A stretch of 64,000 nt of DNA from an archaeon (lineage in GTDB: Archaea; Undinarchaeota; Undinarchaeia; Undinarchaeales; JBDRKL01): positions 8,596-72,595 of the forward strand of contig JBDRKL010000012.1 in NCBI GenBank assembly GCA_043814055.1. The letters run 5' to 3'. Position numbers and translations under genes: made by a program. Under the pieces are notes generated by a model. It was not told where the DNA came from. It saw nothing but the letters and a program-made list of their open reading frames with translations, and did no database searches. Positions 40,670 to 54,967 of the stretch are shown in pieces. Position 1 is the first letter of the stretch. Every line of letters begins with the position of its first letter.

Positions 40670-40894
40670 TTATGCTGTTTCTTCTTCAGATTCTTCTTCA
40701 GCCGGCGCTTCCGGTTCGGATGATTCCCCTTCTGCAGGTGTCTCGTCCTCAATGGATTCGTCGTCGCAGCAATCGCAAGAATCGTCAGTTGACTCTTCTG
40801 CAGGTGCCTCGTTTGAAGTTTCTTCAGAAGTCTCTTTGGTGGTCTCTTCTGCAGTTGCGTCCACAGATGTTTCGTTTTGTGTTTCTTCTTCCAT
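40670..40894 (-). CDS. hyper-acidic 74-aa protein with a central DDSCDCCDDES motif
   Basis: A strong SD, AAAGGAGGAAATCAAAATG, and a position 29 nt downstream of the ferredoxin stop on the same strand. Alternative plus-strand Ser-rich ORFs lack any SD. Confidence 0.6.
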   Translation of the reverse strand: MEEETQNETSVDATAEETTKETSEETSNEAPAEESTDDSCDCCDDESIEDETPAEGESSEPEAPAEEESEEETA

Positions 40895-40923
40895 TTTGAT
40901 TTCCTCCTTTAATTGATTATGAG

Positions 40924-41163
40924 TTATGCCTCAACCGCTGTGTCTTCTGCAGGGACTTCAGTTGGTAGGGTCTTTGGCTTTATTTCAATTGCAGTCTGCG
41001 GGCAGGCTGAAACACATGCTCCACATTCTACACAGACATTTGGATTTGCCTGTGGCTTGCCGTCCGGGCCTTTGCTGTCTTCCATCGCTTTAGGGTCAAG
41101 CGGGCATACTGCTACGCACGCTTTGCAATTTATGCATAGTTCATAGTTTACTATTGCTGGCAT
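40924..41163 (-). CDS. 2x[4Fe-4S] ferredoxin
   Basis: 79 aa with CINCKACVAVCP and CVECGACVSACP. GGAGAGGTGAT SD. Confidence 0.9.
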   Translation of the reverse strand: MPAIVNYELCINCKACVAVCPLDPKAMEDSKGPDGKPQANPNVCVECGACVSACPQTAIEIKPKTLPTEVPAEDTAVEA

Positions 41164-41275
41164 TTTTCAATCACCTCTCCGACTTTAAAATTTTAATCAT
41201 ATATAAAACTATTGCAACCTGTATGCAGTGAAGTTGCAGAAAAGGTTATTAAAGCATTAGGGCAAAATTGGCTGT

Positions 41276-41824
41276 ATGAAGCTCATTGTTGGAGTCACAG
41301 GAGCGTCTGGAATGCCTCTAGCCCAGCGGCTGCTTGAAGTTCTCGCTGAGAAAAAGGTTGAGGTTCATTTGATTGTTTCTGAGAGCGCGAAGAAAGTTAT
41401 GGAGTTTGAGGAAACCAAGCTGGAGAATTTGGAGAAACTCGCTGCGGAAGTTCACAATGAGAAAGATATTTCGGCTTCAATCGCGTCCGGCTCGTTCAAG
41501 ACGGACGGTATGGTTGTGATTCCGTGCAGCATGAAAACCATTGGCGGCTTGGCGTCGGGCTACTCGGACAATTTGATTCTGCGCGCAGGGGATGTTTGTC
41601 TTAAGCAGGACAGGAAATTAATTCTTGTGCCGCGGGAGACTCCGCTGAGTTATATTCACTTGAAGAACTTGACCACACTGAAACAGGCCGGAGCTGTGAT
41701 TCTGCCGCCGGTGGTGGCGTTCTACCAGAAGCCGCGCACTTTGGAGGATATGACAGATTTTATAATAGGCAAAGTCTTAGATTCGCTTGAGATTGAACAT
41801 AAACTATACGAGAGGTGGAAGTAA
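41276..41824 (+). CDS. ubiX: flavin prenyltransferase UbiX (makes prenyl-FMN for UbiD enzymes)
   Basis: 182 aa with VGVTGASG and VVIPCSMKTIGGLASG. Confidence 0.88.
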   Translation: MKLIVGVTGASGMPLAQRLLEVLAEKKVEVHLIVSESAKKVMEFEETKLENLEKLAAEVHNEKDISASIASGSFKTDGMVVIPCSMKTIGGLASGYSDNLILRAGDVCLKQDRKLILVPRETPLSYIHLKNLTTLKQAGAVILPPVVAFYQKPRTLEDMTDFIIGKVLDSLEIEHKLYERWK

Positions 41825-43081
41825 ATGAAACCATTGAACTTTCAACAGGCAGTTGAGAAGCTCCGCGAGAAAGGAATGCTTGAGGTTGTTTCAGAAGAGC
41901 GCAGCATTGGAGAAATCGCTGAGAAGATTAAGGACTTGAAGCCGATTCTTTTTGAGAATACCGGGACAGATTATAAGGTTGCTGCGAACGTTTGTGGCAA
42001 GGAACTTTTTGAAGCTTACTTTGACGCGCCTTGGAAAGATATCCGCGCGCAGTTTGGGAAAGCTGCTGGAAGTCCTGGCACGGTTGAAGCAACTGACGAG
42101 TTTCCGTTTGAGGAAACCGATGATGATTTTGAAAGCCTGCCGATTCCAATGTACTACAAAGGCGACGGCGGGAAATACATCACTGCAGGGGTTTTCGTGA
42201 TTGAGCAGGATGGGGTGAGGAATTTGTCTTATCACAGGACTATGATTGTTGACGGCAAGACCGCGGTTGTGCGGTTGTGCAAGAGGCATTTGTGGGACGC
42301 GTATGAGAAGAATGGGAATGAATTGGATGTGGCGATTTGCATTGGATTAGATCCTGCGCTTCTTTCAGTTGCATCTTTCTCCACCAAGGAGCCGATGGAT
42401 GAGACTGAGATTGCAGCAGGGTTCTATGAACAGCCGCTGAAGATGGTCAAGATGAGCAACGGGATTTCAGTTCCGCGCTGTGCAGAGATTGTGATTCTTG
42501 GAAAGATTACAAAAGAGCAGGCAAAGGAAGGGCCATTTGTTGACTCAACCGGAACTATGGACGGGGAGAGGCAGCAACCGGTGTTCAAACTTGAGAAAGT
42601 TCTGCGCAAGAAAGATGCGATATTCTATGCACTCGTGCCAGGCCGCGGAGAGCACTCATTCCTGATGGGTGTGAGCAAGGAGCCGATTTTGTTCAACGAG
42701 ATTGCAAAGGTCGCGGACATTCAGGATATTTCATTCGCAGACGGCGGGATAGAATGGATGGGCGCTGTGGTGAGCATCAAGAAGAAGTCTGATGCTGATG
42801 TGAAGAAAGTTATTGAAACCGCGTTCGCTACACACAAGAGCCTGAAGCACGTCTGGGTGTTTGATGAGGACATTGACCTGCTGAACCATATGGACCGCGA
42901 ATGGGCGTTCACTACGCGGTTCCAGGGCGACAAGGACATTTACACTTATCCAGGCGAGCCAGGGTCAAGCCTTGACCCGAGCTCAGAGCCAGGTGATGAC
43001 AGGAGAAATACGTGCAAGGTTGGGTTTGACTGTACGATACCGATGGGGAAGGACAAGAAGGACTTTGAGAAGGTGGCGTGA
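41825..43081 (+). CDS. UbiD-family decarboxylase, candidate trans-anhydromevalonate-5-phosphate decarboxylase
   Basis: 418 aa with UbiD-like architecture. It starts 1 nt after the ubiX stop. The functional call rests on clustering with MVK, AcnX L/S and IPK. Confidence 0.7.
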   Translation: MKPLNFQQAVEKLREKGMLEVVSEERSIGEIAEKIKDLKPILFENTGTDYKVAANVCGKELFEAYFDAPWKDIRAQFGKAAGSPGTVEATDEFPFEETDDDFESLPIPMYYKGDGGKYITAGVFVIEQDGVRNLSYHRTMIVDGKTAVVRLCKRHLWDAYEKNGNELDVAICIGLDPALLSVASFSTKEPMDETEIAAGFYEQPLKMVKMSNGISVPRCAEIVILGKITKEQAKEGPFVDSTGTMDGERQQPVFKLEKVLRKKDAIFYALVPGRGEHSFLMGVSKEPILFNEIAKVADIQDISFADGGIEWMGAVVSIKKKSDADVKKVIETAFATHKSLKHVWVFDEDIDLLNHMDREWAFTTRFQGDKDIYTYPGEPGSSLDPSSEPGDDRRNTCKVGFDCTIPMGKDKKDFEKVA

Positions 43082-43881
43082 GGATGGATTTGCATAGTGA
43101 GACAGCAAATGAGCAAAAACGGCTTGAGTACCTGAGAGGCATTCTTCAAAAACTTGAAAAATGCCAGGGATATTGGGAAAAAGTAGCAAGTGCTGTTGTA
43201 GATTCAAATAAATACAAAATTGGTGCATTTTTAAAAGAGAATAAAGAGCTGGGACGGGATGTCGAACAGATTATGATTACAGAGCTGAACGACGACCCTG
43301 GACTAAACAACGGTAATTACCTGTGGATGCTAAAGCTCACATATAAATTATATGAGGAGATTAATAGGATACTAGGGAAGGCGGACTCAGACGAGATTAC
43401 TAATATAGATGCAGATGCGAAAATTAAGAGTTTGTACCGCAGGACGAAGATGTTGCGGGTAAAGGAACTTCGAAAAATCAAGACACGCCCTGTGCCGGAA
43501 TCTGCGCATGGAATGACATTAGAACTTTTGAAAGCACTCAACAAGGAAATTTCTAGAATCACTGAGGAAATAGAAAGGGAACAGAACAAGCTTGAAAAAC
43601 TTGAGAATAGGCGGAAGAAGGCATCCTTGACGAAGAAAAGGAAACCCAAAACCCCTGAGAAACTCCACCCAAAAGGTATGGAGCTTGAGGATCTCCGCGC
43701 TCTTGTTTTGAAAAAATACCAGTGGTACATGAGGTATATGAACGACGAGCAGGAGTTCCCAAGCTTCACAGAAGATAGTATAAAGAATGCGGAAAAAAAG
43801 TATACGTTGGTGGATATGAACAAGGAGATGGACTTCCTGCTTAAGCACAAGAGCAGGAAGGATTTTGAAGAGGAAGCGTAG
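43078..43881 (+). CDS. hypothetical Lys/Glu-rich coiled-coil protein (267 aa) inserted between the UbiD-type gene and mvk
   Basis: GTGA overlap with the UbiD stop (or ATG at 43084). Its stop lies 1 nt before the mvk ATG. It is markedly A/T-rich relative to flanks (hand count 43141-43260 about 33% GC versus 55% for 42961-43020). Confidence 0.6.
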   Translation: MRMDLHSETANEQKRLEYLRGILQKLEKCQGYWEKVASAVVDSNKYKIGAFLKENKELGRDVEQIMITELNDDPGLNNGNYLWMLKLTYKLYEEINRILGKADSDEITNIDADAKIKSLYRRTKMLRVKELRKIKTRPVPESAHGMTLELLKALNKEISRITEEIEREQNKLEKLENRRKKASLTKKRKPKTPEKLHPKGMELEDLRALVLKKYQWYMRYMNDEQEFPSFTEDSIKNAEKKYTLVDMNKEMDFLLKHKSRKDFEEEA

Positions 43882-43882
43882 C

Positions 43883-44854
43883 ATGGCAGAAGGCAGTGGC
43901 TTTGGAAAAGTGATTTTGTTCAACGAGCACTTCGTTGTTTATGGAGTTCCAGCTATTGCGAGCGCGATTTCTAACAAGACTGTTGCAAAGGTTACTGAAG
44001 CTGAGAGCCTGAAGCCGAGTGGCAACGAGGGCTCAATGGTCGGGAACGGCTGGGTGCTTGAGGACAACAGGGATGCGAACGAGGGCTATAAAACCAAGAA
44101 GCTTGAGCACCAGAAAGAATCAATTGAGCTTGTCCTGAACGCTGCAGATTTTATTGCAGATGAAACTCCAATTAAGATTGAGCTCGGCGGGGACTTGAAA
44201 GCCGTGGGCGGAGTTGGGGCGAGCGCTGCGGTCTGCGTTTCAATCGCGCGGGCTTTGAGCAAGGAATTTGAACTGGGCTTTGATGATGATAAAATAAATG
44301 AGATTGCCTATGAAGGAGAAAAAGCATATGCTGGAACCCCTAGCGGGATTGACAACACTGCTTCAACTTATGGCGGGCTTCTGTGGTTTGTGAAGAATAC
44401 TGAGGGCGGGGCTAACACAATGGATTTGATGGAGCTCAAGGAGCCTTTGGAAATTGTGATGGGAAATACTGGGATTACTACTGATACCAAAGCAGCGGTT
44501 GAGGGAGTTCGGGAAAGGAAAGAGGGGAATCCTGAGTATGAGAAAATATTTGCGCGGGCGCACGAGCTTGGGAAAGAAGCGCTCATCGCGTTGAATGATT
44601 TTAATTTGGAGAAAGTTGGGGCGTTGATGAATGAGAATCACGGAATGCTTCAGAAGATTGGAGTTTCGCACGAGAAGCTTGACGAGCTCGTGGAAATTGC
44701 GCAGGAGAACGGAGCTCTTGGAGCGAAGATGACTGGCGGCGGAATGGGCGGATATATGCTTGCGCTTACTCCGGGCAAGGAACTGCAGGAGAAAGTTGCG
44801 AAGGCGATGGAAGACACGGGTTATGAAGCTTTGAGGACTAAGATTGGGGTTTAA
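43883..44854 (+). CDS. mvk: mevalonate kinase
   Basis: Trimmed to MAEGSGFGKVILFNEHFVVYG (GHMP motif I). Motif II VGGVGASAAV, catalytic SGIDNTASTYGG, motif III GAKMTGGGMGG. Confidence 0.85.
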   Translation: MAEGSGFGKVILFNEHFVVYGVPAIASAISNKTVAKVTEAESLKPSGNEGSMVGNGWVLEDNRDANEGYKTKKLEHQKESIELVLNAADFIADETPIKIELGGDLKAVGGVGASAAVCVSIARALSKEFELGFDDDKINEIAYEGEKAYAGTPSGIDNTASTYGGLLWFVKNTEGGANTMDLMELKEPLEIVMGNTGITTDTKAAVEGVRERKEGNPEYEKIFARAHELGKEALIALNDFNLEKVGALMNENHGMLQKIGVSHEKLDELVEIAQENGALGAKMTGGGMGGYMLALTPGKELQEKVAKAMEDTGYEALRTKIGV

Positions 44855-46048
44855 ATGAACTTAACAAAAGACGAAGAGGCAATGCTCAATGGAGAGCATG
44901 GGAACGCGAAGAAAAAGTCAATGGAAATTCTAGTTGCGCTGGGGAAGATTTTTGGAGCTGAGCGGTTGATTCCTGTAAAGAGTGTTCAAGTTGCAGGGGT
45001 TTCATATTCAAATTTAGGCGAGCCAGGCTTGGAGTACTTGTCCGAGCTTGCGAAGGATGGTAAGGTTGAAGTTTTGACTACGCTGAATCCAGCAGGGATG
45101 GATTTGAAGAACTGGGAAGAATTGGGGTTTGCGCCTGAGTTTGCTGAGAAGCAGAAGCGAGTTATTAATGCGTTCACTGCGATGGGGATTCAAGCGACTT
45201 GCACCTGCACTCCTTATTTGATTGGTAACAAGCCAAAGCTTGGCGAGCACATTGCGTGGAGTGAGTCGAGCGCGGTGACTTATGCGAACTCTATGCTTGG
45301 CGCGAGGACTAATCGGGAAGGTGGGCCGAGCGCTTTGGCTGCGGCGCTGACTGGGAAAACGCCTGAGTATGGTTTGCACTTGGATGAGAACAGGAAACCG
45401 CATATTCATTTTAAGGTTGAAGTGAAATTGGAAAAGCTTTCGGACTATGGGGCTTTGGGCTATGCGATTGGACAGAAGTGCGAGAACAAGATTGCTTATA
45501 TCAGCGGCGTGGAAAAGCCGAGTGTGGATGAGCTCAAGACACTCTGTGCTTCGATTGTAACTTACGGAGCTCAGCCGATTTTCCATATGGAAGGGGTTAC
45601 ACCTGAAACTACAAACTACGAACTACCAACTACAAACTACACAATCACAGAGGCAGACATCAAAGAAGCCTACGAGGCGTTGACTGATGAAGGAACTGAT
45701 GTTGACTTTGTAAGTATTGGTTGTCCGCACGCGAGCATTGAGGAGATTGAAAAAGTTGCAGAGCTGTTGGAAGGTAAACAGGTTAAGGTTGATACTTGGA
45801 TTGCAACTGCGCGGCCTATCAAAGTTGAAGCAGACAAGTTGGGCTTTTCAAAAACTATTGAAGATGCAGGAGCGAAGTTTTCGTGCGATACCTGTATGGC
45901 AGTAGCTCCGCTCAAGGGCAGGTTCAAAACTTGTGCGACTACGAGCGCGAAGGCGTGCTACTACGCGAGGAACAAGAACGCGATGAAGATGCGGATTGGA
46001 AGCTTGGAGCAATGCATTGATGCGGCGGTGAGTGGGGAATGGAGATGA
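44855..46048 (+). CDS. aconitase-X (DUF521-like) catalytic subunit, candidate phosphomevalonate dehydratase large subunit
   Basis: 397 aa. The N-terminus LTKDEEAMLNGEHGNAKKKSMEILVALG is typical of the AcnX large subunit, with Cys residues for an Fe-S cluster. Operon context supports the call. Confidence 0.7.
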   Translation: MNLTKDEEAMLNGEHGNAKKKSMEILVALGKIFGAERLIPVKSVQVAGVSYSNLGEPGLEYLSELAKDGKVEVLTTLNPAGMDLKNWEELGFAPEFAEKQKRVINAFTAMGIQATCTCTPYLIGNKPKLGEHIAWSESSAVTYANSMLGARTNREGGPSALAAALTGKTPEYGLHLDENRKPHIHFKVEVKLEKLSDYGALGYAIGQKCENKIAYISGVEKPSVDELKTLCASIVTYGAQPIFHMEGVTPETTNYELPTTNYTITEADIKEAYEALTDEGTDVDFVSIGCPHASIEEIEKVAELLEGKQVKVDTWIATARPIKVEADKLGFSKTIEDAGAKFSCDTCMAVAPLKGRFKTCATTSAKACYYARNKNAMKMRIGSLEQCIDAAVSGEWR

Positions 46049-46335
46049 AAGAGCAGATAAAGAATTTCTTAATGCCGGATTTGAAGAGGGTTGTACTATT
46101 TTCCCTAATCAGTCTAGGCATGTATATTATAGCTTTTCATATTTTTAAGGGGTATTTAGCAACTTATGGCTACCCATTGCCATTCGGTTATGCTAAGACA
46201 GTGCCGGGAAGCATATTTGCAGGCCCATTGTATATAGCTTGGAGCATACCGAATATACTGGCGAATCTCTTGATTTATTACTTGATTGCGTGCCTATTTT
46301 CTTTTGCTTATGAGAATCTGCGAGGTTCAAAATGA
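46039..46335 (+). CDS. small hydrophobic protein (2-3 TM) between the two AcnX subunit genes
   Basis: 98 aa (or a start at 46045, giving an ATGA overlap with the upstream stop). Its end overlaps the downstream ATG by 4 nt. A/T-rich. Confidence 0.5.
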   Translation: MEMKEQIKNFLMPDLKRVVLFSLISLGMYIIAFHIFKGYLATYGYPLPFGYAKTVPGSIFAGPLYIAWSIPNILANLLIYYLIACLFSFAYENLRGSK

Positions 46336-46715
46336 AAGGCAGAACAATAGTTAAAGGAATCGCAGAAGGCATTGCCCTGGTCAGCCAAGAGCCCATCTCA
46401 TTCTACGGCGGAGTTGACCCGGACACTGGAATTGTGGTTGAAAAAGGGCATGCCCTTGAAGGAAAAGAACTGACTGGGAAGATTCTCGTGTTCCCGCAGG
46501 GCAAAGGGAGCACAGTCGGGTCCTATGTTATTTACGCGCTGAAGAAAAATGGCAAGGCGCCTGCGGCGATTGTTTGCAGGGAAACCGAGACCATTGTCGC
46601 GGTCGGGGCGATTATCGCAGAGATTCCAATGGTGGATAAAGTAGATATATCAGGAATTAATAGTGGCGATAAGCTTAAAGTGGATGGAGACCAAGGGGAA
46701 GTAATCATATTATGA
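46332..46715 (+). CDS. aconitase-X swivel (DUF126-like) subunit, candidate phosphomevalonate dehydratase small subunit
   Basis: 127 aa with GRTIVKGIAEG.ALVS.EPISFYGGVDP.TG and LVFPQGKGSTVGSYV. Confidence 0.7.
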   Translation: MKGRTIVKGIAEGIALVSQEPISFYGGVDPDTGIVVEKGHALEGKELTGKILVFPQGKGSTVGSYVIYALKKNGKAPAAIVCRETETIVAVGAIIAEIPMVDKVDISGINSGDKLKVDGDQGEVIIL

Positions 46716-47620
46716 TAAAAGCATCTGCACCTTCAAAATTAATGCTGTTTGGGGAGCACGCGCTACTCTACGGCGAGCCCGCGATAGCCACTGCGGTTGA
46801 CAAGCGGGCGCACGTCACAGCCTGCGAACTTGAAAAGCCGCGGATTGTGATTGAGCGCAAGGAATCAGATGAGAGCATAGATATTTCTATCAAAGACAAG
46901 TCAGACCACCCAATTGCAAAAGCTGTCCAGGCAACGTTGAAGCACCTTAACAAGAATGTCGGCATTGGAATTGAAATTGACAACGGCGTCACGGACAGCG
47001 CTGCCATAATCAGCGCGACCACGGGCGCAGTGATGAAGCTTCTTACTGACAACTTGATAAAGCCCGAGGTGGCTGAGGTCTCGTATGAAACAGGAAAACT
47101 GCTGAACAACGGAACGAATGGCATAGACAGCACTGTCACGACTTTTGGGGGCACTGTCATGTTTGAGAAGGGGCAGGGCAGGACTGTTCCAATTCATAAT
47201 GACCTGAGCTTTGTCATAGGAGACACAGGAATAAGGAGCGACCCGAACGAGCTTATTGCAAAAATAAAGACAGTGGCGGAGGACCCAAAAGTTGCGCTCA
47301 TGGTATTCAGCATCGGCTCGCTTGTGCGGCGCGCGAATAACGCGCTCATAGCAGGGAACCCGCTTGAGATTGGCCGTCTGATGGATATGAACCACGTGTT
47401 TCTCAGGAATCTTGGCGTGAGCAACCAGTCGCTGGAAAACATAATTGAAGCGGCGAAGGAGACCGGCGCATTCGGAGCCAAGATAACAGGGACAGGCGGC
47501 GAGGGCACGGTAATTGCGCTCACAGACAAGCCAAACGAAGTTGCAAAGGCGATGAAAGAGGCGGGAGCAGTGAAAGCATTCTCAATAAAAAGCAACCAGG
47601 AGGGAGTGAGAATTGAATAA
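46712..47620 (+). CDS. second GHMP-kinase-fold protein, MVK-like but with degenerate phosphate-binding loops
   Basis: 302 aa. Motif I is intact (APSKLMLFGEHALLYG) and the catalytic NGIDSTVTTFGG is intact. Motif II reads DNGVTDSAA instead of PxGSGLGSSAA, and motif III reads TGTGGEG. Confidence 0.7.
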   Translation: MIKASAPSKLMLFGEHALLYGEPAIATAVDKRAHVTACELEKPRIVIERKESDESIDISIKDKSDHPIAKAVQATLKHLNKNVGIGIEIDNGVTDSAAIISATTGAVMKLLTDNLIKPEVAEVSYETGKLLNNGTNGIDSTVTTFGGTVMFEKGQGRTVPIHNDLSFVIGDTGIRSDPNELIAKIKTVAEDPKVALMVFSIGSLVRRANNALIAGNPLEIGRLMDMNHVFLRNLGVSNQSLENIIEAAKETGAFGAKITGTGGEGTVIALTDKPNEVAKAMKEAGAVKAFSIKSNQEGVRIE

Positions 47621-48407
47621 CGGAAAGGATTTAGTTTTCATAAAGCTGGGAGGTTCTGCAATAACTTTCAAGGACCAGCCAGGGAAGGCGAATTTTAAAG
47701 TGCTTGACAGGAGCGCGGCGGAGATTGCAGAAATTGCCATAGATTATAATTTATTGGTCGGCCACGGCGGAGGTTCGTTTCCGCACCCGGTCGCACAGGA
47801 GTACAAGGTGCAGGAGGGAATTAAGATATGCGGAACAAAAGGATTCGTGGAGACGCAGAATGCGGTGCGCAAGATTAACTCTCTCGTGGTGAAGAGTCTT
47901 GTGGACAAGGGAGTTCCTGTTGTTCCTATACAAACCTCCGCGTGCGCTGTGATGTCAAAGGGCGAGATAACCGAGATGTATCTTGACCCGATAAAAGAGG
48001 CGTTAAAGAACAGGATGGTTCCTGTGCTAAATGGGGACGTGCTATTTGACCTGACAACAGGCTGCGGCATAGCTTCCACTGAGATGATATTTAATTACCT
48101 TGCGAAAAAGCTCGGGCCAAAGCGCATCATACTTGGGGCGAATGTTGACGGGGTTTACGCAGGCGGGGCTGATGGCGGCAAGCTCATAGCAAGAATAGAC
48201 AAGAACAACAAGCGGAAAATTATTGAAGAACTTAAAGAAGTTGAGCCAGCAGTCCCGGATGTTACTGGAAGCATGGCTCACAAGGTTGAAGAGCTTTATA
48301 ATTTGAGCAAACTGGATATTGGAATACAAATAGTAAACATGCTGAAGGAGGGGTACCTGAAAAGGGCAGTGCAAGGCGAGCACCTGGGCACTATTATTCA
48401 CGTGTAA
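47613..48407 (+). CDS. ipk: isopentenyl phosphate kinase
   Basis: 264 aa from a TTG start, amino-acid-kinase fold with VFIKLGGSAITFK and VGHGGGSFPH. Confidence 0.85.
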   Translation: MNNGKDLVFIKLGGSAITFKDQPGKANFKVLDRSAAEIAEIAIDYNLLVGHGGGSFPHPVAQEYKVQEGIKICGTKGFVETQNAVRKINSLVVKSLVDKGVPVVPIQTSACAVMSKGEITEMYLDPIKEALKNRMVPVLNGDVLFDLTTGCGIASTEMIFNYLAKKLGPKRIILGANVDGVYAGGADGGKLIARIDKNNKRKIIEELKEVEPAVPDVTGSMAHKVEELYNLSKLDIGIQIVNMLKEGYLKRAVQGEHLGTIIHV

Positions 48408-48408
48408 A

Positions 48409-49458
48409 ATGGCAAGCAAAACTGAGAACAGAAAACTGGACCACATCAACATATGCTCTGATGAGGGCGTTGAGGCGAAGGAGAAGAGCACAATGCTTGA
48501 GCTCGTGGACTTTGTGCACGAGGCGCTTCCTGAGATAAATATTGATGAAATTGATTTGTCAGTTGAGCTGTTCGGGAAAAAACTCAACGCGCCAATCATA
48601 ATCAGCGCAATGACCGGCGGGCACGCAGTAGCTGAAAAAATAAACAAAAACCTCGCGAAGGCGGCGCAGAAGCTCGGGGTCGGGTTTGGGGTTGGCTCGC
48701 AGAGGGCGATGATTGAGGATGAAAAGCTCGCATACACTTACCAGGTGCGGGATGTTGCACCGGACATACTTGTGATTGGGAATATTGGCGCGCCACAGAT
48801 TCGCGAATATGAAAAAGGCGAGGTGCAGAAAGCGGTTGAGGATATTGAAGCGGATGTTCTCGCAGTGCACTTGAACGCATTGCAGGAAGTGATACAGCCG
48901 GAGGGCGACACGGATTTCAAGGGATTCGCTGATGATATTGGAAAGCTTGTGAAGAAAATGAAAGTGCCGGTGATTGTAAAGGAAACCGGAGCTGGAATTT
49001 CAAAAGAGGCGGCTAAAGAGCTGATAGAAAAAGGAGTCGCAGGCATAGACACTGGCGGGGCAGGAGGAACTTCCTTCGCAGCGGTTGAATACAAGCGGAC
49101 CAAGGGAAAGGACACGGGCTTGTGGGACTGGGGCATACCAACCGCAGCCTCAATACTTGAGGTCAGGAGCGTTTCAAAAGACATCCCGCTTATTGCAACA
49201 GGAGGAATACGGACAGGGATGAGTGTTGCAAAGACGATTGCGCTCGGCGCGGACGCGGCGGGAATTGGATTGCCTCTGCTCAACGCGGCAAGGGAAAGCT
49301 CGGAGAAAGTTGAGGAAGAGCTTGAAAAAATAATTGACAGCCTGAAAAAAGCCATGTTCCTGACAGGTTCTGCCAGCTTGGGAGAATTGAAGAAGAAAAA
49401 AATTGTCCTCAAAGGCGAACTATATAACTGGGCAGTGCAAAGGGGGCTGAATGGCTAA
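48409..49458 (+). CDS. fni: type 2 (FMN-dependent) isopentenyl-diphosphate delta-isomerase
   Basis: 349 aa with IIISAMTGG, VKETGAGIS, GGAGGTSFA and ATGGIRTG. Confidence 0.9.
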   Translation: MASKTENRKLDHINICSDEGVEAKEKSTMLELVDFVHEALPEINIDEIDLSVELFGKKLNAPIIISAMTGGHAVAEKINKNLAKAAQKLGVGFGVGSQRAMIEDEKLAYTYQVRDVAPDILVIGNIGAPQIREYEKGEVQKAVEDIEADVLAVHLNALQEVIQPEGDTDFKGFADDIGKLVKKMKVPVIVKETGAGISKEAAKELIEKGVAGIDTGGAGGTSFAAVEYKRTKGKDTGLWDWGIPTAASILEVRSVSKDIPLIATGGIRTGMSVAKTIALGADAAGIGLPLLNAARESSEKVEEELEKIIDSLKKAMFLTGSASLGELKKKKIVLKGELYNWAVQRGLNG

Positions 49459-50341
49459 GAAAAAGGGCGTGGAGAAGATAGAGGTTACACTTGCGGAGAA
49501 GGCAAAAACGCTCATTGAGATAACCCGGCCGGTGAACTGCGGAATGATAGGAATTTCAGTTGCCATCGCAATGTGGGTTGGGTTTGGAGGAATGCCTCTG
49601 TTTGTCCTGCTGATTGCTGCGCTGGTGGCTGCGATAGGCATAAACGCCGCAGGGAACGCGCTTAATGATTATTATGACATTGATATTGACAGGATAAACA
49701 AACCGGGCAAGGCGCTTCCATCAGGGAAGATAACCAAGGTTGGGCTTTGGATTTATGCCACTTTGTTGTTCGCTATGGGAAATACGGTTGCGATGCTCTA
49801 CTTGACCAAAATCCCAATAATAATTGCAGTAATTAATTCTGTCCTCCTCATAGTCTATGCGATAAAAGTCAAGAAGTCAGGATTCCTGGGGAACATAATG
49901 ATAAGCTACCTTGTTGCTTCTGTGTTTGCGTTCGCGGCCGCGGTTGTTGACGCGCTCATGATAGGAATATTCCTTTCAATAGCTGCGTTCTTCACGAATG
50001 CAGCACGTGAAATTCTGAAGGACCTTGAGGATGTCAGGGGGGACGAGCTTGGCGGAGCGCAGACGCTTCCGCTAGCAGAGGGCGGCAAAAAGACCATGAT
50101 AGTTGTTGCGTCATTCCTGATACTCGCGATAATATTGAGCCCGCTGCCATACCTGCTTGAAATACTTTCAATGTACTACATAGCAATAATACTCGTGGCT
50201 GACACAATATTGCTCGGTGTGATATACTCAGTCCTGAATAAGCGGACAAGAAAAAGCGCCACGGTCAACCAGAGGCGCATAAAGTTCGCAGCGATAATAG
50301 GAATTCTCGCGTTCCTCGCGGGAACTGTTCCATGGCCATAA
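49451..50341 (+). CDS. UbiA-family prenyltransferase, digeranylgeranylglyceryl phosphate synthase-like
   Basis: 296 aa with ~8 TM and Asp-rich motifs NALNDYYDIDIDRINKP and KDLEDVRGDE. Confidence 0.8.
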   Translation: MAKKKGVEKIEVTLAEKAKTLIEITRPVNCGMIGISVAIAMWVGFGGMPLFVLLIAALVAAIGINAAGNALNDYYDIDIDRINKPGKALPSGKITKVGLWIYATLLFAMGNTVAMLYLTKIPIIIAVINSVLLIVYAIKVKKSGFLGNIMISYLVASVFAFAAAVVDALMIGIFLSIAAFFTNAAREILKDLEDVRGDELGGAQTLPLAEGGKKTMIVVASFLILAIILSPLPYLLEILSMYYIAIILVADTILLGVIYSVLNKRTRKSATVNQRRIKFAAIIGILAFLAGTVPWP

Positions 50342-51363
50342 ATGAAACCTGCACCCCAAGGATTGTGATAGAAAACAACGCATTAGATGGGATTGGCGAT
50401 ATTGTTGAGGGGGGCAGGGCGCTCATAGTTGCTGACGAAACCACAATGAGGGTTGCAGGAGACCGGGTAAAAAAAGCGCTTGAGGAAAAGGGAATTGATG
50501 TTAGCGTTTATTTTGCAAAGATTTCTGATGAGAAAACTGTTTCCGAGGCAGTGGATGCTGTGAAAGAATCAGGCGCTGAGATTGTTCTGGGAATTGGGGG
50601 AGGAACTTGCATAGACATTGCAAAACTTAGCTCGTTCAGGAATAACGTGCCGTTTATTTCAGTTCCGACATCTGCCGCGCACGATGGGATCTGCTCGCCA
50701 GTTGCCTCAATAAAGCAGGCAGACGGGCTGAAGTCATATCCGGCAAAGCCGCCGATTGCGGTTGTTGCTGATATTTTAATCATAAAAAATGCACCTGAGA
50801 AATTTTACGCTGCAGGTGTGGGGGATTTAATCGCGAATTTCACTGCCGTGGCTGACTGGGAATTGGCAAGAGATGAAAAGGGCGACGAGTTCAATGAGGA
50901 ATCTGCCGAGCTTTCAAGGAAGAGCGCGCAGGCGATTTTGGAGGCAATTGATTCGGTTGCGGAGCGGAGTGATGAGGGAGTAAGAATTGTTATGGATGCT
51001 CTAATCAAGTCAGGGGTTTCAATGTGCATGGCAGGCTCCAGCAGACCGTGCTCTGGGGCTGAGCACTTGTTCTCGCACAACTTGGACAAGATTGCAGGCT
51101 TTCCAGCACTGCACGGCGCCCAGTGCGGGGTCGGCGCGATATTGATGGCAAAACTGCACGGGCTTGACTGGGAAAAATACAAGGAAGTGCTTGAGAAGGT
51201 TGGGGCTCCGACCACTGCAAAAGAGCTTGGGGTGAGTGAGGGGCAAATCGTGCAGGCACTCGTTAGTGCACACATGCTCCGGGATAGGTACACAATACTA
51301 CACAAGGCGCCGTTGAACGAAGAAAAAGCTAAAGAACTAGCAAAGATTACAGGTGTAATATGA
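50332..51363 (+). CDS. egsA: sn-glycerol-1-phosphate dehydrogenase
   Basis: 343 aa with LGIGGGTCIDIAK, AAHDG and SGAEHLFSH (metal ligands of the G1PDH/Fe-ADH fold). Confidence 0.85.
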   Translation: MAINETCTPRIVIENNALDGIGDIVEGGRALIVADETTMRVAGDRVKKALEEKGIDVSVYFAKISDEKTVSEAVDAVKESGAEIVLGIGGGTCIDIAKLSSFRNNVPFISVPTSAAHDGICSPVASIKQADGLKSYPAKPPIAVVADILIIKNAPEKFYAAGVGDLIANFTAVADWELARDEKGDEFNEESAELSRKSAQAILEAIDSVAERSDEGVRIVMDALIKSGVSMCMAGSSRPCSGAEHLFSHNLDKIAGFPALHGAQCGVGAILMAKLHGLDWEKYKEVLEKVGAPTTAKELGVSEGQIVQALVSAHMLRDRYTILHKAPLNEEKAKELAKITGVI

Positions 51364-52109
51364 AAGACGTAAGGAAGCACATATTTGACAAGCTCAAGAA
51401 AGAGAAACTTGTATTCACATTGCTAGACCCTGAAAAGCTTGACGCGAAAGAGGCCGGAAAGCTCGCGAAGAAGCTTGAGGACATTGGGTCTGATGCCATA
51501 ATGCTCGGCGGCTCAACAACTGGCTCAATAGATGATGTTGCAAAGGCGGTTAAGGATGCAGTGAGCATTCCGATAATACTTTTCCCAAGCTCTGCGATGT
51601 CACTCTCAAAGCACGCGGATGCTGTGTTCTTCATGAGCCTGATAAACTCTGAGAAGATTGAATACCTGATGGGGGAGCAATTGAAGGGCTCACTAATGGT
51701 CAAGAATTATGGCTTGGAACCGATAGGAATGGGCTACATCGTGATAAATACTGGTGAGCCAACAATGGTTGAGAAGGTTGCACAGATAAGGCGGCTCACG
51801 AACAAGGAAGCGGTATCGTGCGCGCTAGCCGCTGAGTACTTCGGGATGAAAGTGGTCTACCTTGAGGCAGGATCCGGGGCGCAGAGCCCTGTGCCAGACA
51901 GCATGATAAGCGCTGTGAAAAAGGAGATTGGAGTGCCGCTCATAGTTGGCGGCGGAATAAACGGCCCGCTGATGGCCAAGAAGAAGCTTGAGGCAGGGGC
52001 TGACATTATTGTAATAGGCACTGTGATAGAAAAGGCGTACGCAAAGGCCGCTGAGATAATTGACATTGTAAAAAAAATCCCGGTTGAAAAGAAAGGATTG
52101 AAAAAATGA
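51360..52109 (+). CDS. geranylgeranylglyceryl phosphate synthase (PcrB/GGGPS family)
   Basis: 249 aa with TLLDPEK, IMLGGSTTG, VYLEAGSGA and LIVGGGI. Confidence 0.85.
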   Translation: MKDVRKHIFDKLKKEKLVFTLLDPEKLDAKEAGKLAKKLEDIGSDAIMLGGSTTGSIDDVAKAVKDAVSIPIILFPSSAMSLSKHADAVFFMSLINSEKIEYLMGEQLKGSLMVKNYGLEPIGMGYIVINTGEPTMVEKVAQIRRLTNKEAVSCALAAEYFGMKVVYLEAGSGAQSPVPDSMISAVKKEIGVPLIVGGGINGPLMAKKKLEAGADIIVIGTVIEKAYAKAAEIIDIVKKIPVEKKGLKK

Positions 52110-52354
52110 GCTGGTTGTTCTCCTTAAGAATGAAACTGCACAGGGTTAAAAGGAGAAAGAAAACTATCCCAGACATTAAGGAAGAAATAGAGGAACTGAA
52201 ATCAGGAATAGTCCATCTAAATGATCAGTACATGCAGCGAACCATAGAAGACCGGGAGTACGAGAGAAAAAAGCAGGATGCTCTGCATAAAATTCATCAT
52301 CTTGAGGAGAGGATACTTGAGAAGAAGATGGAGAATATGGGCGAAAATATGTAA
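52106..52354 (+). CDS. small basic coiled-coil protein (82 aa)
   Basis: ATGA overlap with the GGGPS stop. No recognisable motif. Confidence 0.45.
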   Translation: MSWLFSLRMKLHRVKRRKKTIPDIKEEIEELKSGIVHLNDQYMQRTIEDREYERKKQDALHKIHHLEERILEKKMENMGENM

Positions 52355-52369
52355 ATTTTTGAGTAACAA

Positions 52370-53047
52370 ATGAAACTAGCAGTACTTTTTTCAGGGGGCA
52401 AGGACAGTACAATGGCTTTGCACAAGGTTCTGAAGCAGGGGCACGACGTTACTCATTTGGTTTCTGCGTTTCCGAAGAACCCAGAGAGCATGCTTTACCA
52501 CACTTCAAATATTGAGCTTACCAAGCTCGCGGCAGAAGCGATTGGAATTCCACTTTTGAAACTTGAGGTTGAAAGTTTGGAAGACACTGGGGAGGCGGCT
52601 GAGCTTGAGGAAGCTTTGGAGAAGCTGGATATTGAGGGAATTGTTGTTGGCGGAGTTAGCTCAAAATATCAGGCAAGGATTTTCAGTGCGATTGCAGACA
52701 AGCTTGGGATTGAGATGATTGCCCCGTACTGGGGAAAGCCGCACGAAGAATTGATTCGGGAGGCGATTGGAGCTGGGTATGATATCAGGATTACTTCTGT
52801 TTCTGCTGATGGGCTTGATGAGAATTGGCTTGGAAGGAAATTGGACTTGGAAACGCTTGAAGAGTTAAAGAAGCTTAAAGAAACGTATGGGGTTGATATT
52901 GGGGGCGAGGGCGGGGAGTACTGCACTGTGGTTGTTGCAGGGCCGATTTTCAAGAAGCGAATTAAGTTTTTGGAGTCTGAAAAGGTTTGGGAAGGGATGA
53001 GCGGGAAGCTTGTTGTGAAAAAGGCAGAGCTCGTGGCGAGCAAATAA
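52370..53047 (+). CDS. diphthine-ammonia ligase (Dph6 / MJ0570-type PP-loop ATPase)
   Basis: 225 aa with the PP-loop VLFSGGKDS and GEGGEYCT. Confidence 0.75.
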   Translation: MKLAVLFSGGKDSTMALHKVLKQGHDVTHLVSAFPKNPESMLYHTSNIELTKLAAEAIGIPLLKLEVESLEDTGEAAELEEALEKLDIEGIVVGGVSSKYQARIFSAIADKLGIEMIAPYWGKPHEELIREAIGAGYDIRITSVSADGLDENWLGRKLDLETLEELKKLKETYGVDIGGEGGEYCTVVVAGPIFKKRIKFLESEKVWEGMSGKLVVKKAELVASK

Positions 53048-53120
53048 TAATACACCGAGGCACGGGCGAGGAGAGCTTGGTTAAGGTTTATATAGCACTT
53101 TCAATTAATGGCAATCGGGA

Positions 53121-54209
53121 ATGACATTTAGCGAACGAACTAACAAGATACTGCACGCAGCAGTTTTGTTCCTTTCCCTGTACTTTTTCCTAGTTTCAAT
53201 AAAGCTCATGGGCGGGTCGTTCAAGCTTATGGGCTCAGGTTTTGCCGAGACGCTCCTGAGCGCGACTGCGAATCCGCTTACAGCACTCTTTATTGGAATT
53301 CTTGCAACTGCAATTATTCAAAGCTCATCTTCAACTACTTCAATTATTGTTGCGTTCGTTGGCGCTGGTATGCTGCCGCTTGAGGCAGCTATCCCTATGG
53401 TAATGGGTGCAAATATTGGAACAACAGTTACAAACACCTTGGTTTCATTTGCCCATCTTACGCGGCGGAGCGAGTTCAGATTGGCGTTTTCTTCTTCAAT
53501 TGTCCACTTATTTTTCAACGCGATTATTGTTATGATATTTTTCCCGCTTGAACAAGCTACTCATATTCTTCAGAGAACTGCGATTTATATGGCTGATATG
53601 ACTGTTGGAACTTCAGGCATGACTTTCACAAGCCCGTTGGATCAAGTAATTACGCCAGTTGTGAAAGCAGTGATACACGTTCTTCCTCCTCAGTACATGA
53701 TACTAATTTCAGTTGTGGTGCTTATGATTGCGCTGAAGTATCTTGTGACAGCAACAAAAGTCCTGTTCATTTCAGGCAGGGAGAATTTCCTGAGCAAGTA
53801 CTTGTTCAAGACTGCCAAAATAAGCTTTGTGTGCGGATTCCTACTTACTGCGCTTGTGCAAAGCAGTTCAATCACAACATCACTTGTAGTTCCATTTGCA
53901 GGGGCAGGCCTCTTGTCACTAGAGCAAATATTCCCATTCGCACTGGGCGCAAATATTGGAACTACGGTTACAGCGTTCCTTGCGGCTCTGGTTACTGGAA
54001 CAACAATGGCGCTGGCGCTTGCATATGTGCACATACTCTTCAATTCGCTTGGCGCAATTGTGATATGGCCAATTAGAAAATTGCCGATATGGATGGCGGA
54101 GAAGATGGGCGAGATAGTTGAGAAAAAGCGCAGGGTAGCTCTTATATACGTGGCAGTAATATTCTACATACTGCCCCTCATGGTCTTAATATTAAGCGGG
54201 GTGATTTAA
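53121..54209 (+). CDS. Na+/phosphate cotransporter family membrane protein
   Basis: 362 aa with a duplicated signature, QSSS.TTS..V......L......GANIGTTVT (53300s and 53860s). Confidence 0.8.
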   Translation: MTFSERTNKILHAAVLFLSLYFFLVSIKLMGGSFKLMGSGFAETLLSATANPLTALFIGILATAIIQSSSSTTSIIVAFVGAGMLPLEAAIPMVMGANIGTTVTNTLVSFAHLTRRSEFRLAFSSSIVHLFFNAIIVMIFFPLEQATHILQRTAIYMADMTVGTSGMTFTSPLDQVITPVVKAVIHVLPPQYMILISVVVLMIALKYLVTATKVLFISGRENFLSKYLFKTAKISFVCGFLLTALVQSSSITTSLVVPFAGAGLLSLEQIFPFALGANIGTTVTAFLAALVTGTTMALALAYVHILFNSLGAIVIWPIRKLPIWMAEKMGEIVEKKRRVALIYVAVIFYILPLMVLILSGVI

Positions 54210-54211
54210 AA

Positions 54212-54967
54212 ATGGAACTTTACAAAAGAATATATGATGCGTGGAAGAAGCGGCCGATACTGGAAGATGCATATAATCATGCAGCAGACATACTGAAGCG
54301 GGACCAGTACATGTTCAATGAGGTCTGCACTGCCCTAATAAGCGGCGGCTCCACAAGGGAGAGCAGTACTGATGAGGAGAGGGACATAGTTGAGATAATC
54401 ACAGAGGAAGACCACAAGATAAACGACATGGCGAGGAGCATCCGCCAGGAACTGCTGTCTTATCTTGCGCTGAACAGCTCGCCTGACCTGTCATCCTCGC
54501 TTGTGCTCACGAGCCTTGTGATATACCTTGAGCGGCTTGGGGATTACACAAAGGACCTTGCTCAGCTTACCCTGCTCAACGCGCCGAAGTTCAGGCAGAT
54601 GACTTACCATGGGGACATAGAAAAATATCAAAAGCACTTGATGGTAATGTTTGACCTTACAATAAAGGCATTTGAAAACGGGGACAAGGTTGCGGCGATG
54701 AAAGTAATGAACGAGAATGTCAAGCTCAGGAATGAGACTGATGTTTTGCTGCACAAAATCAATACTGACAAAAACATACGCGGCAGGGAGGCAATGACCT
54801 ACACTTTGTACACCCGATATTTCAGGAGAGTTGCCGGGCACTTGGAAAATGTCGCATCAAGCGTGATTTCGCCATTCCCTGACTTGGGGTTCAAGCACGC
54901 TGCAGGGGTTAAGCTCACGGAGAAGAGAACAAAGATGAGCAATATTGTGAAAAAGAGAGGGAAGTAG
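54212..54967 (+). CDS. PhoU-like regulatory protein (paralog 1)
   Basis: 251 aa with LERLGDYTKDLAQL and RRVAGHLENVASSV, the two PhoU-type helices. It starts 2 nt after the transporter stop. Confidence 0.65.
   Translation: MELYKRIYDAWKKRPILEDAYNHAADILKRDQYMFNEVCTALISGGSTRESSTDEERDIVEIITEEDHKINDMARSIRQELLSYLALNSSPDLSSSLVLTSLVIYLERLGDYTKDLAQLTLLNAPKFRQMTYHGDIEKYQKHLMVMFDLTIKAFENGDKVAAMKVMNENVKLRNETDVLLHKINTDKNIRGREAMTYTLYTRYFRRVAGHLENVASSVISPFPDLGFKHAAGVKLTEKRTKMSNIVKKRGK

Follow-up and report, generated by a model that had tools for sequence, protein, structure and literature searches.

Mevalonate and ether-lipid core genes in a predicted super-operon of mosaic ancestry in an Undinarchaeales genome

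The window analyzed here is a 64,000-nucleotide stretch of a single contig from G000, the MAG of an uncultured Undinarchaeales archaeon (0.98 Mb, 82% complete), and positions are those of the window. At 41276-52354 lie 14 plus-strand ORFs that abut or overlap; their coordinates were checked, and all 14 are present on that strand in the order and at the positions listed in an earlier sequence-only reading. Family calls were made by Pfam and NCBIfam HMM searches with curated cut-offs, and for 11 of the 14 ORFs (UbiX, UbiD, MVK, AcnX-L/S, second MVK, IPK, IDI2, DGGGPS, G1PDH, and GGGPS) the HMM assignment is the one that reading had made. As judged by these models, every enzyme in the row is a member of a known family. 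The features are as follows, with bit scores given against the cut-off where there is one.

40924..41163, minus strand: ferredoxin gene, 2x[4Fe-4S], with CxxCxxCxxxCP motifs; a divergent neighbor outside the pathway
41239..41253, plus strand: promoter-like element, a purine-rich BRE-like stretch plus TATA-like box TTATTAAA; a consensus match only
41276..41824, plus strand: ubiX, flavin prenyltransferase making prFMN for UbiD (PF02441, E 3e-47; NF004685, 249 bits vs 188)
41825..43081, plus strand: ubiD, UbiD-family decarboxylase (TIGR00148, 293 bits vs 245)
43078..43881, plus strand: orf267, K/E-rich, coiled-coil-like (GC 0.41; Shine-Dalgarno-like AAGGTGG upstream)
43883..44854, plus strand: mvk1, mevalonate kinase class A, Thermoplasmata/Bathyarchaeia type (TIGR00549, 229 bits vs 163)
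44855..46048, plus strand: acnXL, AcnX large subunit, phosphomevalonate dehydratase, type IIb (PF04412, 525 bits)
46039..46335, plus strand: tm98, hydrophobic, between the two AcnX subunit genes (GC 0.38)
46332..46715, plus strand: acnXS, AcnX small (swivel) subunit (PF01989, E 9e-38)
46712..47620, plus strand: mvk2, mevalonate kinase class B, native Undinarchaeales type (TIGR00549, 175 bits vs 163)
47613..48407, plus strand: ipk, isopentenyl phosphate kinase (NF040647, 199 bits vs 120)
48409..49458, plus strand: idi2, type 2 IPP isomerase (TIGR02151, 416 bits vs 281)
49451..50341, plus strand: dgggps, UbiA-family DGGGP synthase (PF01040, E 5e-34; best NCBIfam model NF009521 [DGGGPS], 242 bits, below the cut-off of 296)
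50332..51363, plus strand: g1pdh, sn-glycerol-1-phosphate dehydrogenase, EgsA (NF002022, 399 bits, slightly short of the cut-off of 413)
51360..52109, plus strand: gggps, GGGP synthase (TIGR01769, 216 bits vs 162; NF003198, 270 vs 247)
52106..52354, plus strand: orf82, charged, between gggps and dph6 (GC 0.39)
52370..53047, plus strand: dph6, diphthine-ammonia ligase, Dph6 (TIGR03679, 245 bits vs 197)

The row is tightly packed, as had been claimed, with 12 of the 13 junctions being overlaps or gaps of no more than 1 nt. Counting overlaps as negative, the junctions are 0 (ubiX/ubiD), -4 (ubiD/orf267), and 0 (mvk1/acnXL) at the front; -10 (acnXL/tm98), -4 (tm98/acnXS), and -4 (acnXS/mvk2) in the AcnX part; -8 (mvk2/ipk), +1 (ipk/idi2), and -8 (idi2/dgggps) in the middle; and -10 (dgggps/g1pdh), -4 (g1pdh/gggps), and -4 (gggps/orf82) at the back. 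The orf267/mvk1 junction is -17 with a TTG start at 43865 and +1 with an ATG at 43883, the latter being the start that agrees with orthologue N-termini. The TATA-like box lies 30 nt 5' of the ubiX ATG, and between 41000 and 55000 such a box is present 18 to 45 nt before a start codon only at ubiX and at a Na/Pi gene; given the position of this putative promoter, the ubiX transcript would be leaderless or near-leaderless. The divergent ferredoxin gene is also found upstream of the cluster in L052/L053 and in genomes G002 and G006 of family f3. At the other end, dph6 starts 15 nt past orf82 with no TATA-like box there, and probably closes the transcription unit that includes gggps. The arrangement suggests co-transcription, probably as one operon running from the ubiX promoter to gggps and likely on to dph6.

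The mevalonate part contains the archaeal enzyme set that the sequence-only reading had proposed for conversion of mevalonate-5-P through trans-anhydromevalonate-5-P and isopentenyl-P to IPP, with MVK, AcnX-L/S, UbiD plus UbiX, and IPK all identified by HMM. The AcnX subunits match the type-IIb AcnX of T. kodakarensis over their full lengths (AcnX-L to 7cnr_A, E 5e-109; AcnX-S to 7cnr_B [TK1248], E 2e-45), far better than they match type-I cis-3-hydroxyproline dehydratase. AcnX-L has conserved residues Cys118, Cys290, Cys347, and Glu137, and so keeps the equivalents of ApPMDh C122, C297, and C356, the cluster ligands, and of E145; the three Cys ligands of the [4Fe-4S] cluster of A. pernix PMDh were shown by mutagenesis (PMC10040528). 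A search for a classical phospho- or diphosphomevalonate decarboxylase elsewhere in the genome found none: with TIGR01240, G000 yields nothing at E <= 0.01, and the one remaining GHMP kinase (C7:76561-77541) does not resemble MDD, although with a genome 82% complete the absence of a GHMP decarboxylase is no proof.

The row codes for two mevalonate kinases of different types. Mvk1 is 60-65% identical to the MVKs of Thermoplasmata, Methanomassiliicoccales, and Hadesarchaea, belongs to class A, which forms its own clade apart from class B in a tree, and has an intact P-loop (GGVGASAA) and motif III (TGGGMGG). The product of mvk2 had been labeled a GHMP paralog, a description that has to be replaced: the gene is the lineage's native MVK with a damaged P-loop, and the upstream mvk is the second type. 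Mvk2 has a deletion of ~7 residues in the P-loop region (IDN-------GVTDSAA, compared with SEVPIGSGMGSSAA in the closest relative, L052) and, in motif III, Glu in place of Gly (TGTGGEG, compared with TGAGGGG in relatives). Its terminal branch is 0.55, compared with 0.24 for its sister; overall it has diverged from L052 (60% identity) no further than ipk has (58%). Mvk2 is possibly impaired, a decay reading for which the motif damage is the sole basis.

The mevalonate module had also been described as joined to G1PDH, GGGPS, and DGGGPS, and these genes do form one co-directional, overlap-coupled row with it. The DGGGPS carries an NDxxDxxxD motif, and its assignment is supported because synteny with g1pdh and gggps is conserved. 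For G1PDH the next-best family is glycerol dehydrogenase (104 bits), and the orthologues in relatives score 436-518 with NF002022. Between the lipid genes and their orthologues in families f2 and f4, identity is 48-68%, similar to that of neighboring housekeeping-type genes.

Three low-GC ORFs at gene junctions, orf267, tm98, and orf82, appear to be lineage-specific and are absent from the clusters of relatives. Orf267 has no match in Pfam, NCBIfam, or PHROG, its only match among 1.84 billion representative proteins is to itself, and it is missing from relatives' clusters; an open frame of 267 codons is far longer than chance would give. It sits directly 3' of ubiD, where relatives L052 and L054 have an LpdD-like gene (PF21758). 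Genes for LpdD-type prFMN chaperones adjoin UbiD in archaeal MVA operons, but in G000 the unrelated orf267 fills this position and no LpdD homologue is found anywhere in the assembly, an absence that at 82% completeness is again no proof. Tm98 has no family in Pfam, NCBIfam, or PHROG and only a self-match among 5.8 billion clusters, and acnXL and acnXS are directly adjacent in relatives, without it. Orf82 has no Pfam or NCBIfam family and a faint PHROG match (E 3e-4) over a coiled-coil stretch; in relatives, gggps is followed directly by dph6.

The predicted activities can be arranged in a single route. MVK would phosphorylate mevalonate to mevalonate-5-P, which the AcnX-L/S [4Fe-4S] dehydratase would convert to trans-anhydromevalonate-5-P; UbiD, using the prFMN that UbiX supplies, would then decarboxylate this to isopentenyl-P, which IPK would convert to IPP, and IDI-2 would interconvert IPP and DMAPP. 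G1PDH would provide sn-glycerol-1-P, to which GGGPS would attach a first geranylgeranyl chain and DGGGPS a second, giving DGGGP, with GGPP coming from a GGPPS encoded elsewhere; CarS and CDP-alcohol phosphatidyltransferases, also encoded elsewhere, would complete the lipids.

The archaeal MVA pathway was reportedly described by Hayakawa et al. (2018) and Yoshida et al. (2020) in Aeropyrum pernix and Methanosarcina mazei, with MVK, PMDh (AcnX type IIb), AMPD (UbiD) plus UbiX, and IPK. The system here resembles it in enzyme set, in a split AcnX with three Cys ligands, in UbiD plus UbiX, and in IPK and IDI-2, but differs in that the genes are contiguous, are fused to lipid-core genes, and include two MVKs of different origin. 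In a synteny survey of 80 named genomes, plus Undinarchaeota genomes, Bathyarchaeia, Asgard, and DPANN commonly have mvk-ubiD-acnXL-acnXS-ipk-idi2 clusters. The suggestion that such genes are usually scattered is wrong for the MVA part, in which ubiD lies by AcnX in 74 of the 80, whereas the rarity claimed for the lipid extension stands, GGGPS being adjacent in 0/80 and DGGGPS in 2/80 (one an Undinarchaeota genome). MVA genes are usually clustered (PMC11052028). Clusters in Bathyarchaeia, Promethearchaeota, Thor-/Hodarchaeota, and Iainarchaeota share the core order, orientation, and class A MVK and UbiD types, with AcnX-L 55-66% identical, but they end at idi2, and in many of them ubiX lies elsewhere or on the opposite strand. 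Thorarchaeota mvk-ubiD-acnXL-acnXS-g1pdh clusters also combine the MVA module with a glycerol-1-P dehydrogenase homologue, although G1PDH is the only lipid gene and the prenyltransferases, ipk, and idi2 are missing from the row.

Comparison among Undinarchaeota genomes suggests that the row is a mosaic. The back half, mvk-ipk-idi2-dgggps-g1pdh-gggps-dph6 with a class B mvk, looks ancestral within Undinarchaeota, and the gggps-dph6 adjacency is kept in f2 and f4 genomes. The front half, the mevalonate-5-P-to-isopentenyl-P genes, differs from family to family: G002 and G006 (f3) and G009 (f2) have in its place a GHMP-type decarboxylase, located upstream within the row; f3 retains a relic AcnX-L without one of the Cys ligands; and the front half in G000 includes the extra Thermoplasmata/Bathyarchaeia-type MVK. 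The directions of any gene transfers are inferred.

The whole is best read, with a probability of about 0.85, as an Undinarchaeales (DPANN) biosynthetic super-operon of mosaic evolutionary origin that combines the mevalonate pathway with the lipid core. The row could instead be a cluster that internal promoters or terminators divide into several units under separate control, such as ubiX-ubiD, mvk-acnX, and a third with mvk-ipk-idi2 and the lipid genes. Its modules occur separately in other genomes, the low-GC inserts sit exactly at module borders, promoters within coding DNA are possible, and five T5 runs inside the row offer possible attenuation; however, no T run in the row reaches 6, the internal starts have Shine-Dalgarno-like motifs upstream and none has a TATA-like box at promoter distance, and the tight junctions speak against splitting, which is unlikely. 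It is highly improbable that the UbiX/UbiD pair serves a role outside mevalonate metabolism, in decarboxylation of aromatic acids or quinone precursors, with another enzyme taking mevalonate-5-P to isopentenyl-P. This would fit the best matches of UbiD among solved structures (PDB), which are 6h6x/6h6v, presumably the furandicarboxylate decarboxylase HmfF, with no AMPD structure among the matches, and the JGI annotation of UbiD homologues as 2,5-furandicarboxylate decarboxylase. Against it stand the association of ubiD with acnXL/S across the survey, its presence as a single copy, the only UbiD of a ~1-Mb genome, and the failure to find an alternative decarboxylase in G000.

Thiolase, HMG-CoA synthase, HMG-CoA reductase, GGPP synthase, and CarS are outside the window, as had been noted, and all are encoded elsewhere in G000, along with DUF35, three CDP-OH transferases (head-group), and three GGR-family genes; a second operon provides HMGS-thiolase-DUF35-HMGR. 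With these upstream and downstream genes a full route from acetyl-CoA to archaeol is encoded, which suggests that the lineage is probably lipid-autonomous. Dombrowski et al. (2020) reported the archaeal MVA pathway for both orders and, for Naiadarchaeales, a complete pathway to ether lipids, but found Undinarchaeales to be missing the part between glycerone phosphate and archaetidylinositol phosphate and inferred lipid dependence for their Undinarchaeales MAGs (PMC7414124); the main text mentions neither "operon" nor "gene cluster." In contrast, G000 and families f2 and f4 carry G1PDH, GGGPS, DGGGPS, and CarS. Host lipids might still be needed, with the operon serving other isoprenoids or partly decaying, as that inferred dependence, the lack of AcnX, GGGPS, and G1PDH in family f5, the failure to find GGGPS in f3, and the motif damage in one gene of the row, mvk2, could indicate. 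This is distinctly unlikely, however, as the enzymes from acetyl-CoA to CDP-archaeol, the head-group transferases, and GGR are all intact ORFs in G000, AcnX-L retains its catalytic Cys ligands, and the lipid genes keep both their tight coupling and a level of identity to f2 and f4 orthologues like that of housekeeping-type neighbors. The row presents a known pathway, arranged with unusual completeness, in a lineage that can probably make its own membrane lipids.

The row of genes at 41276-52354 consists of 14 consecutive plus-strand ORFs, all of them present where the sequence-only reading had placed them, and its functional reading, an archaeal-type mevalonate (MVA) route joined to assembly of the ether-lipid core, is judged right on the support of gene families and context. 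Adjacent ORFs overlap by 4-10 nt or are separated by gaps of 0-1 nt, as had been claimed, with the exception of orf267/mvk1, where an apparent 17-nt overlap turns into a gap of 1 nt when the mvk1 start is placed at ATG 43883, the start that agrees with orthologue N-termini. GGTG/GGAGG-like motifs precede most internal starts. The features referred to here are:

41276-52354, plus strand: the operon, from ubiX to orf82
43078-43881, plus strand: orf267, an orphan ORF
43883-44854, plus strand: mvk1, a class A mevalonate kinase (mvkA)
46039-46335, plus strand: tm98, an orphan ORF
46712-47620, plus strand: mvk2, a class B mevalonate kinase (mvkB)
52106-52354, plus strand: orf82, an orphan ORF
52370-53047: dph6
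53087-54967: genes for a Na/Pi cotransporter and PhoU, preceded by a separate TATA-like box (TTTATATA), 34 nt upstream of the ATG

Pfam and NCBIfam searches uphold all of the families named from the sequence, although DGGGP synthase and glycerol-1-P dehydrogenase are best matches that fall below cut-off. Above curated cut-offs are UbiX, UbiD, AcnX large and swivel, isopentenyl phosphate kinase, type-2 IPP isomerase, and GGGP synthase, as well as two proteins matching the mevalonate kinase equivalog TIGR00549. The UbiA-family protein has DGGGP synthases as its best NCBIfam models, with a score under their cut-off, and the Fe-ADH-family protein matches glycerol-1-P dehydrogenase far ahead of any other model (399 bits, with the cut-off at 413). 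Neither Pfam nor NCBIfam has a family that matches orf267, tm98, or orf82. The predicted pathway is a known one, as are all of its enzyme families; the row of ∼11 kb encodes each step from mevalonate to DGGGP, GGPP synthase excepted, and is thus a natural cassette with which archaeal lipid synthesis could conveniently be rebuilt in bacteria.

A BRE/TATA-like element matching the consensus (TTATTAAA) lies at 41246, 30 nt upstream of the ubiX ATG, and the next TATA-like element at promoter distance is the one before the Na/Pi transporter gene (53087). A consensus scan finds no BRE/TATA-like element at the internal starts, and there are no T runs of six or more inside the row. A gap of 15 nt separates orf82 from dph6, whose proximity to gggps is conserved, and on this consensus evidence the transcription unit probably spans 41276-53047. 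Further downstream, orf82, dph6, and the transporter and phoU genes separate gggps from a membrane protein gene at 55109-55600, whose homologue in a close relative (L054) directly follows gggps. Upstream, at 40728-40964, a ∼22-nt unit (TCTTCTGCAGG...) is present four times, at spacings of 51-98 nt, around the 3' end of a ferredoxin gene; ferredoxin orthologues in Undinarchaeales family f3 have a long Pro/Glu-rich tail, and the repeats may be a remnant of such a repetitive C-terminal tail.

The AcnX proteins had been open to placement in a non-mevalonate group, but AcnX-L and AcnX-S align over their whole lengths with the type-IIb AcnX chains of Thermococcus kodakarensis (7cnr; E values of 5e-109 and 2e-45), and match type-I cis-3-hydroxyproline dehydratase far more weakly. 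AcnX-L keeps in context the three cysteines shown by mutagenesis to hold the [4Fe-4S] cluster of Aeropyrum pernix phosphomevalonate dehydratase, and also the one Glu tested there (PMC10040528). A GHMP-type mevalonate (di)phosphate decarboxylase has no model match elsewhere in the genome (G000), which is 82% complete. For UbiD, a PDB search returns no characterised trans-anhydromevalonate-5-P decarboxylase, the nearest structures being 6h6x/6h6v, which we take to be the furandicarboxylate decarboxylase HmfF, and its function is therefore assigned from context. Of the 80 named genomes with the closest AcnX-L, 74 have a ubiD orthologue no more than 10 kb from it, and the window's ubiD is the only one in a 1-Mb genome in which no other candidate decarboxylase was found. 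Closest relatives have a gene for an LpdD-type prFMN chaperone directly 3' of ubiD, the place occupied here by orf267, and an LpdD-like gene was not found in the G000 assembly. In two relatives a 175- to 190-aa ORF of no known family is situated between ubiX and ubiD (L052, 9477-10004; L054, 9286-9858), the two being alike near the C-terminus as judged by eye; G000 is without it, and its ubiX and ubiD abut (gap 0).

The window sits on a 153-kb contig of a 0.98-Mb assembly (14 contigs), the sole member of its family among the genomes compared. The earlier part of the route is encoded outside the window in a second overlap-coupled operon:

G000 C13:18594-22952: HMG-CoA synthase, thiolase, orf129, DUF35, HMG-CoA reductase

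The 129-aa product of orf129 belongs to no family, and the ORF splits thiolase from its DUF35 partner in a known complex, as tm98 does AcnX-L and AcnX-S. Elsewhere in G000 are genes for GGPP synthase, CarS, three CDP-alcohol phosphatidyltransferases, and three members of the geranylgeranyl reductase family, so that the row, the C13 operon, and these scattered genes together encode a complete route from acetyl-CoA to polar archaeal lipids. An earlier reconstruction found the archaeal mevalonate pathway in both Undinarchaeota orders and judged the Undinarchaeales to be without the steps from glycerone phosphate to archaetidylinositol phosphate (PMC7414124); in contrast, G000, an Undinarchaeales (DPANN) genome, does encode the lipid steps reported missing. 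Undinarchaeales had been described as relying on partners for their membrane lipids; since two sister families also encode the whole route, such reliance on a host appears to be a trait of particular families.

The arrangement had been considered unusually complete, on the premise that these genes are usually scattered. The premise does not hold for the mevalonate part, which is commonly clustered both in a 2024 survey (PMC11052028) and among the same 80 genomes, where AcnX-L has mvk as a neighbour in 50, ipk and idi2 in 39 each, and ubiX in 26. The order mvk-ubiD-acnXL-acnXS-ipk-idi2 is typical of Bathyarchaeia, several Asgard phyla, Iainarchaeota, and others, and one Diapherotrites contig carries HMGR-HMGS-thiolase-DUF35-x-MVK-UbiX-UbiD-x-AcnXL-AcnXS-IPK-x-IDI2 in a single row. 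The lipid extension, however, is rare: GGGPS is adjacent in none of the 80, DGGGPS in two (one being Undinarchaeota), and a G1PDH homologue in seven, all Thorarchaeota (L099, L109, L112, L125, L126, L128, and L134) with a conserved mvk-ubiD-acnXL-acnXS-g1pdh row, which ties the MVA module to the glycerol-1-P step in a second, independent way. The operon looks unusually complete relative to other phyla, and ancestral within Undinarchaeota.

Such genes also occur under bacterial names. Nine bacterial genomes from Chloroflexota/Anaerolineae (L095, L096, L119, L122, L124, L127, L129, L135, and L137) have ubiD-acnXL-acnXS, in some cases together with ubiX or idi2. AcnX-L in these genomes shares 55-58% identity with that of the window, and the four in the tree (L095, L096, L119, and L129) form a single clade amid Asgard sequences. 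Archaeal-type MVA clusters on MAG contigs named 'Candidatus Sulfotelmatobacter' (L063, with a Bathyarchaeia-like order) and 'Candidatus Nanopelagicaceae' (L115, Asgard-like) are probably mis-binned.

Within the phylum, the row mvkB-ipk-idi2-dgggps-g1pdh-gggps, mostly followed by dph6, is present in family f2 (G001, G005, and G009), in the close relative L054, and in the sister-order genome G013; three further sister-order genomes (G014 to G016) have ipk-idi2-dgggps-gggps in a row, and in family f4 g1pdh-gggps-dph6 is relocated as a block. The window's lipid genes share 48-68% identity with those of f2 and f4, in line with neighbouring genes, which points to vertical descent, and the lipid extension looks ancestral in Undinarchaeota.

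Members of the order differ in the segment from mevalonate-5-P to isopentenyl-P. The arrangement ubiX-ubiD-(mvkA)-acnXL-acnXS is that of families f1 and f4 and of G005 (f2); family f5 is without AcnX, GGGPS, and G1PDH; and other members have a GHMP decarboxylase:

G009 (f2), L142 4993-7352: GHMP decarboxylase, TIGR01240 above cut-off, directly upstream of mvkB-ipk-idi2-dgggps-g1pdh-gggps-dph6
G002 (f3), L032 11826-14948: GHMP decarboxylase (TIGR01240 above cut-off), HAD hydrolase, AcnX-L
G006 (f3), L035 4334-7213: the same replacement block

The G009 locus keeps the operon scaffold and is a putative haloarchaeal-like or classical version of it. The f3 block, in the order decarboxylase-HAD-AcnXL-MVK-like-mvkB, occupies the place of ubiX-ubiD-acnXL-acnXS; its AcnX-L no longer has the conserved Glu or one of the Cys ligands, AcnX-S was not found in G002 or G006, and the locus looks like a pathway swap with a relic AcnX-L. 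In G003, two fragments of a geranylgeranyl reductase family gene lie on the opposite strand (L033, 1903-2726) in a 1.7-kb mvk1-acnXL gap, another sign that operon junctions accept insertions.

The two kinases of the row differ in origin. mvk1 is 60-65% identical to the kinases of Thermoplasmata, Methanomassiliicoccales, Hadesarchaea, and marine Euryarchaeota, and a long stem sets this class A clade off from class B, to which mvk2 belongs, a clade seen in Undinarchaeales alone and positioned beside ipk-idi2. Because L054 has class B only, and several outside genomes have class A only, beside ubiD/acnX, the classes look functionally equivalent. In class B, the GHMP P-loop is canonical and motif III rich in Gly in all relatives, including L052, the closest, but in G000 ∼7 P-loop residues of mvk2 are deleted and a motif-III Gly is replaced by Glu. 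G000 may be losing its native copy; mvk2 as a whole has diverged no more than ipk, so the motif damage is what argues for impairment and the reading is tentative.

UbiD of the window's family groups not with f2/f4 but with a Bathyarchaeia/Theionarchaea/Hodarchaeota clade; in these other phyla the homologue can stand alone, apart from MVA genes. Undinarchaeales monophyly is rejected (p-AU 0.0006) for a group chosen after the tree was seen and in a best-hit sample, and no direction of transfer is therefore claimed. The best AcnX-L tree splits Undinarchaeota into two types; horizontal transfer is not claimed, as monophyly is not rejected by the AU test (p = 0.08).

The orphan ORFs have a GC content of 38-41%, compared with 47-51% for the enzyme genes, and are not homologous to the differing extra ORFs at the same junctions in L052 and L054. 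orf267 matches only itself among 1.84 billion representative proteins, as does tm98 among 5.8 billion clusters; PHROGs gives no match apart from a faint coiled-coil one for orf82, and repeats or hairpins flanking the three inserts amount to short, chance-level matches. Coding-type periodicity, Shine-Dalgarno-like motifs, and retained overlap coupling suggest that they are probably translated.

Taken jointly, cassettes, kinase displacement, and orphan proteins could make this operon a record of a pathway being remodelled in place, in an Undinarchaeales lineage autonomous for lipids; we consider this reading unlikely as a whole (a probability of about 0.2). A conserved scaffold, mvkB-ipk-idi2-dgggps-g1pdh-gggps-dph6, would take interchangeable cassettes for mevalonate-5-P to isopentenyl-P: the native UbiX/UbiD/AcnX set, a Bathyarchaeia/Thermoplasmata-like mvkA-acnXL-acnXS block, or a GHMP decarboxylase. 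In G000, an acquired kinase would be displacing the native one with its deleted P-loop, and orphan ORFs wedged between partner subunits, such as tm98 and orf129, would not be junk but new accessory proteins that are expressed; tm98 could, for instance, be a membrane anchor of the AcnX dehydratase.

What is new here is an exchangeable decarboxylation module accompanied by a kinase that is redundant and damaged, the family-less ORFs at gene junctions, and genomic evidence suggesting lipid autonomy in an order for which its absence had been reported. At the same locus within one order, some genomes carry the archaeal-type module and others a GHMP decarboxylase, and relic genes remain; this series of loci is clean natural material for studying replacement among mevalonate pathway variants.
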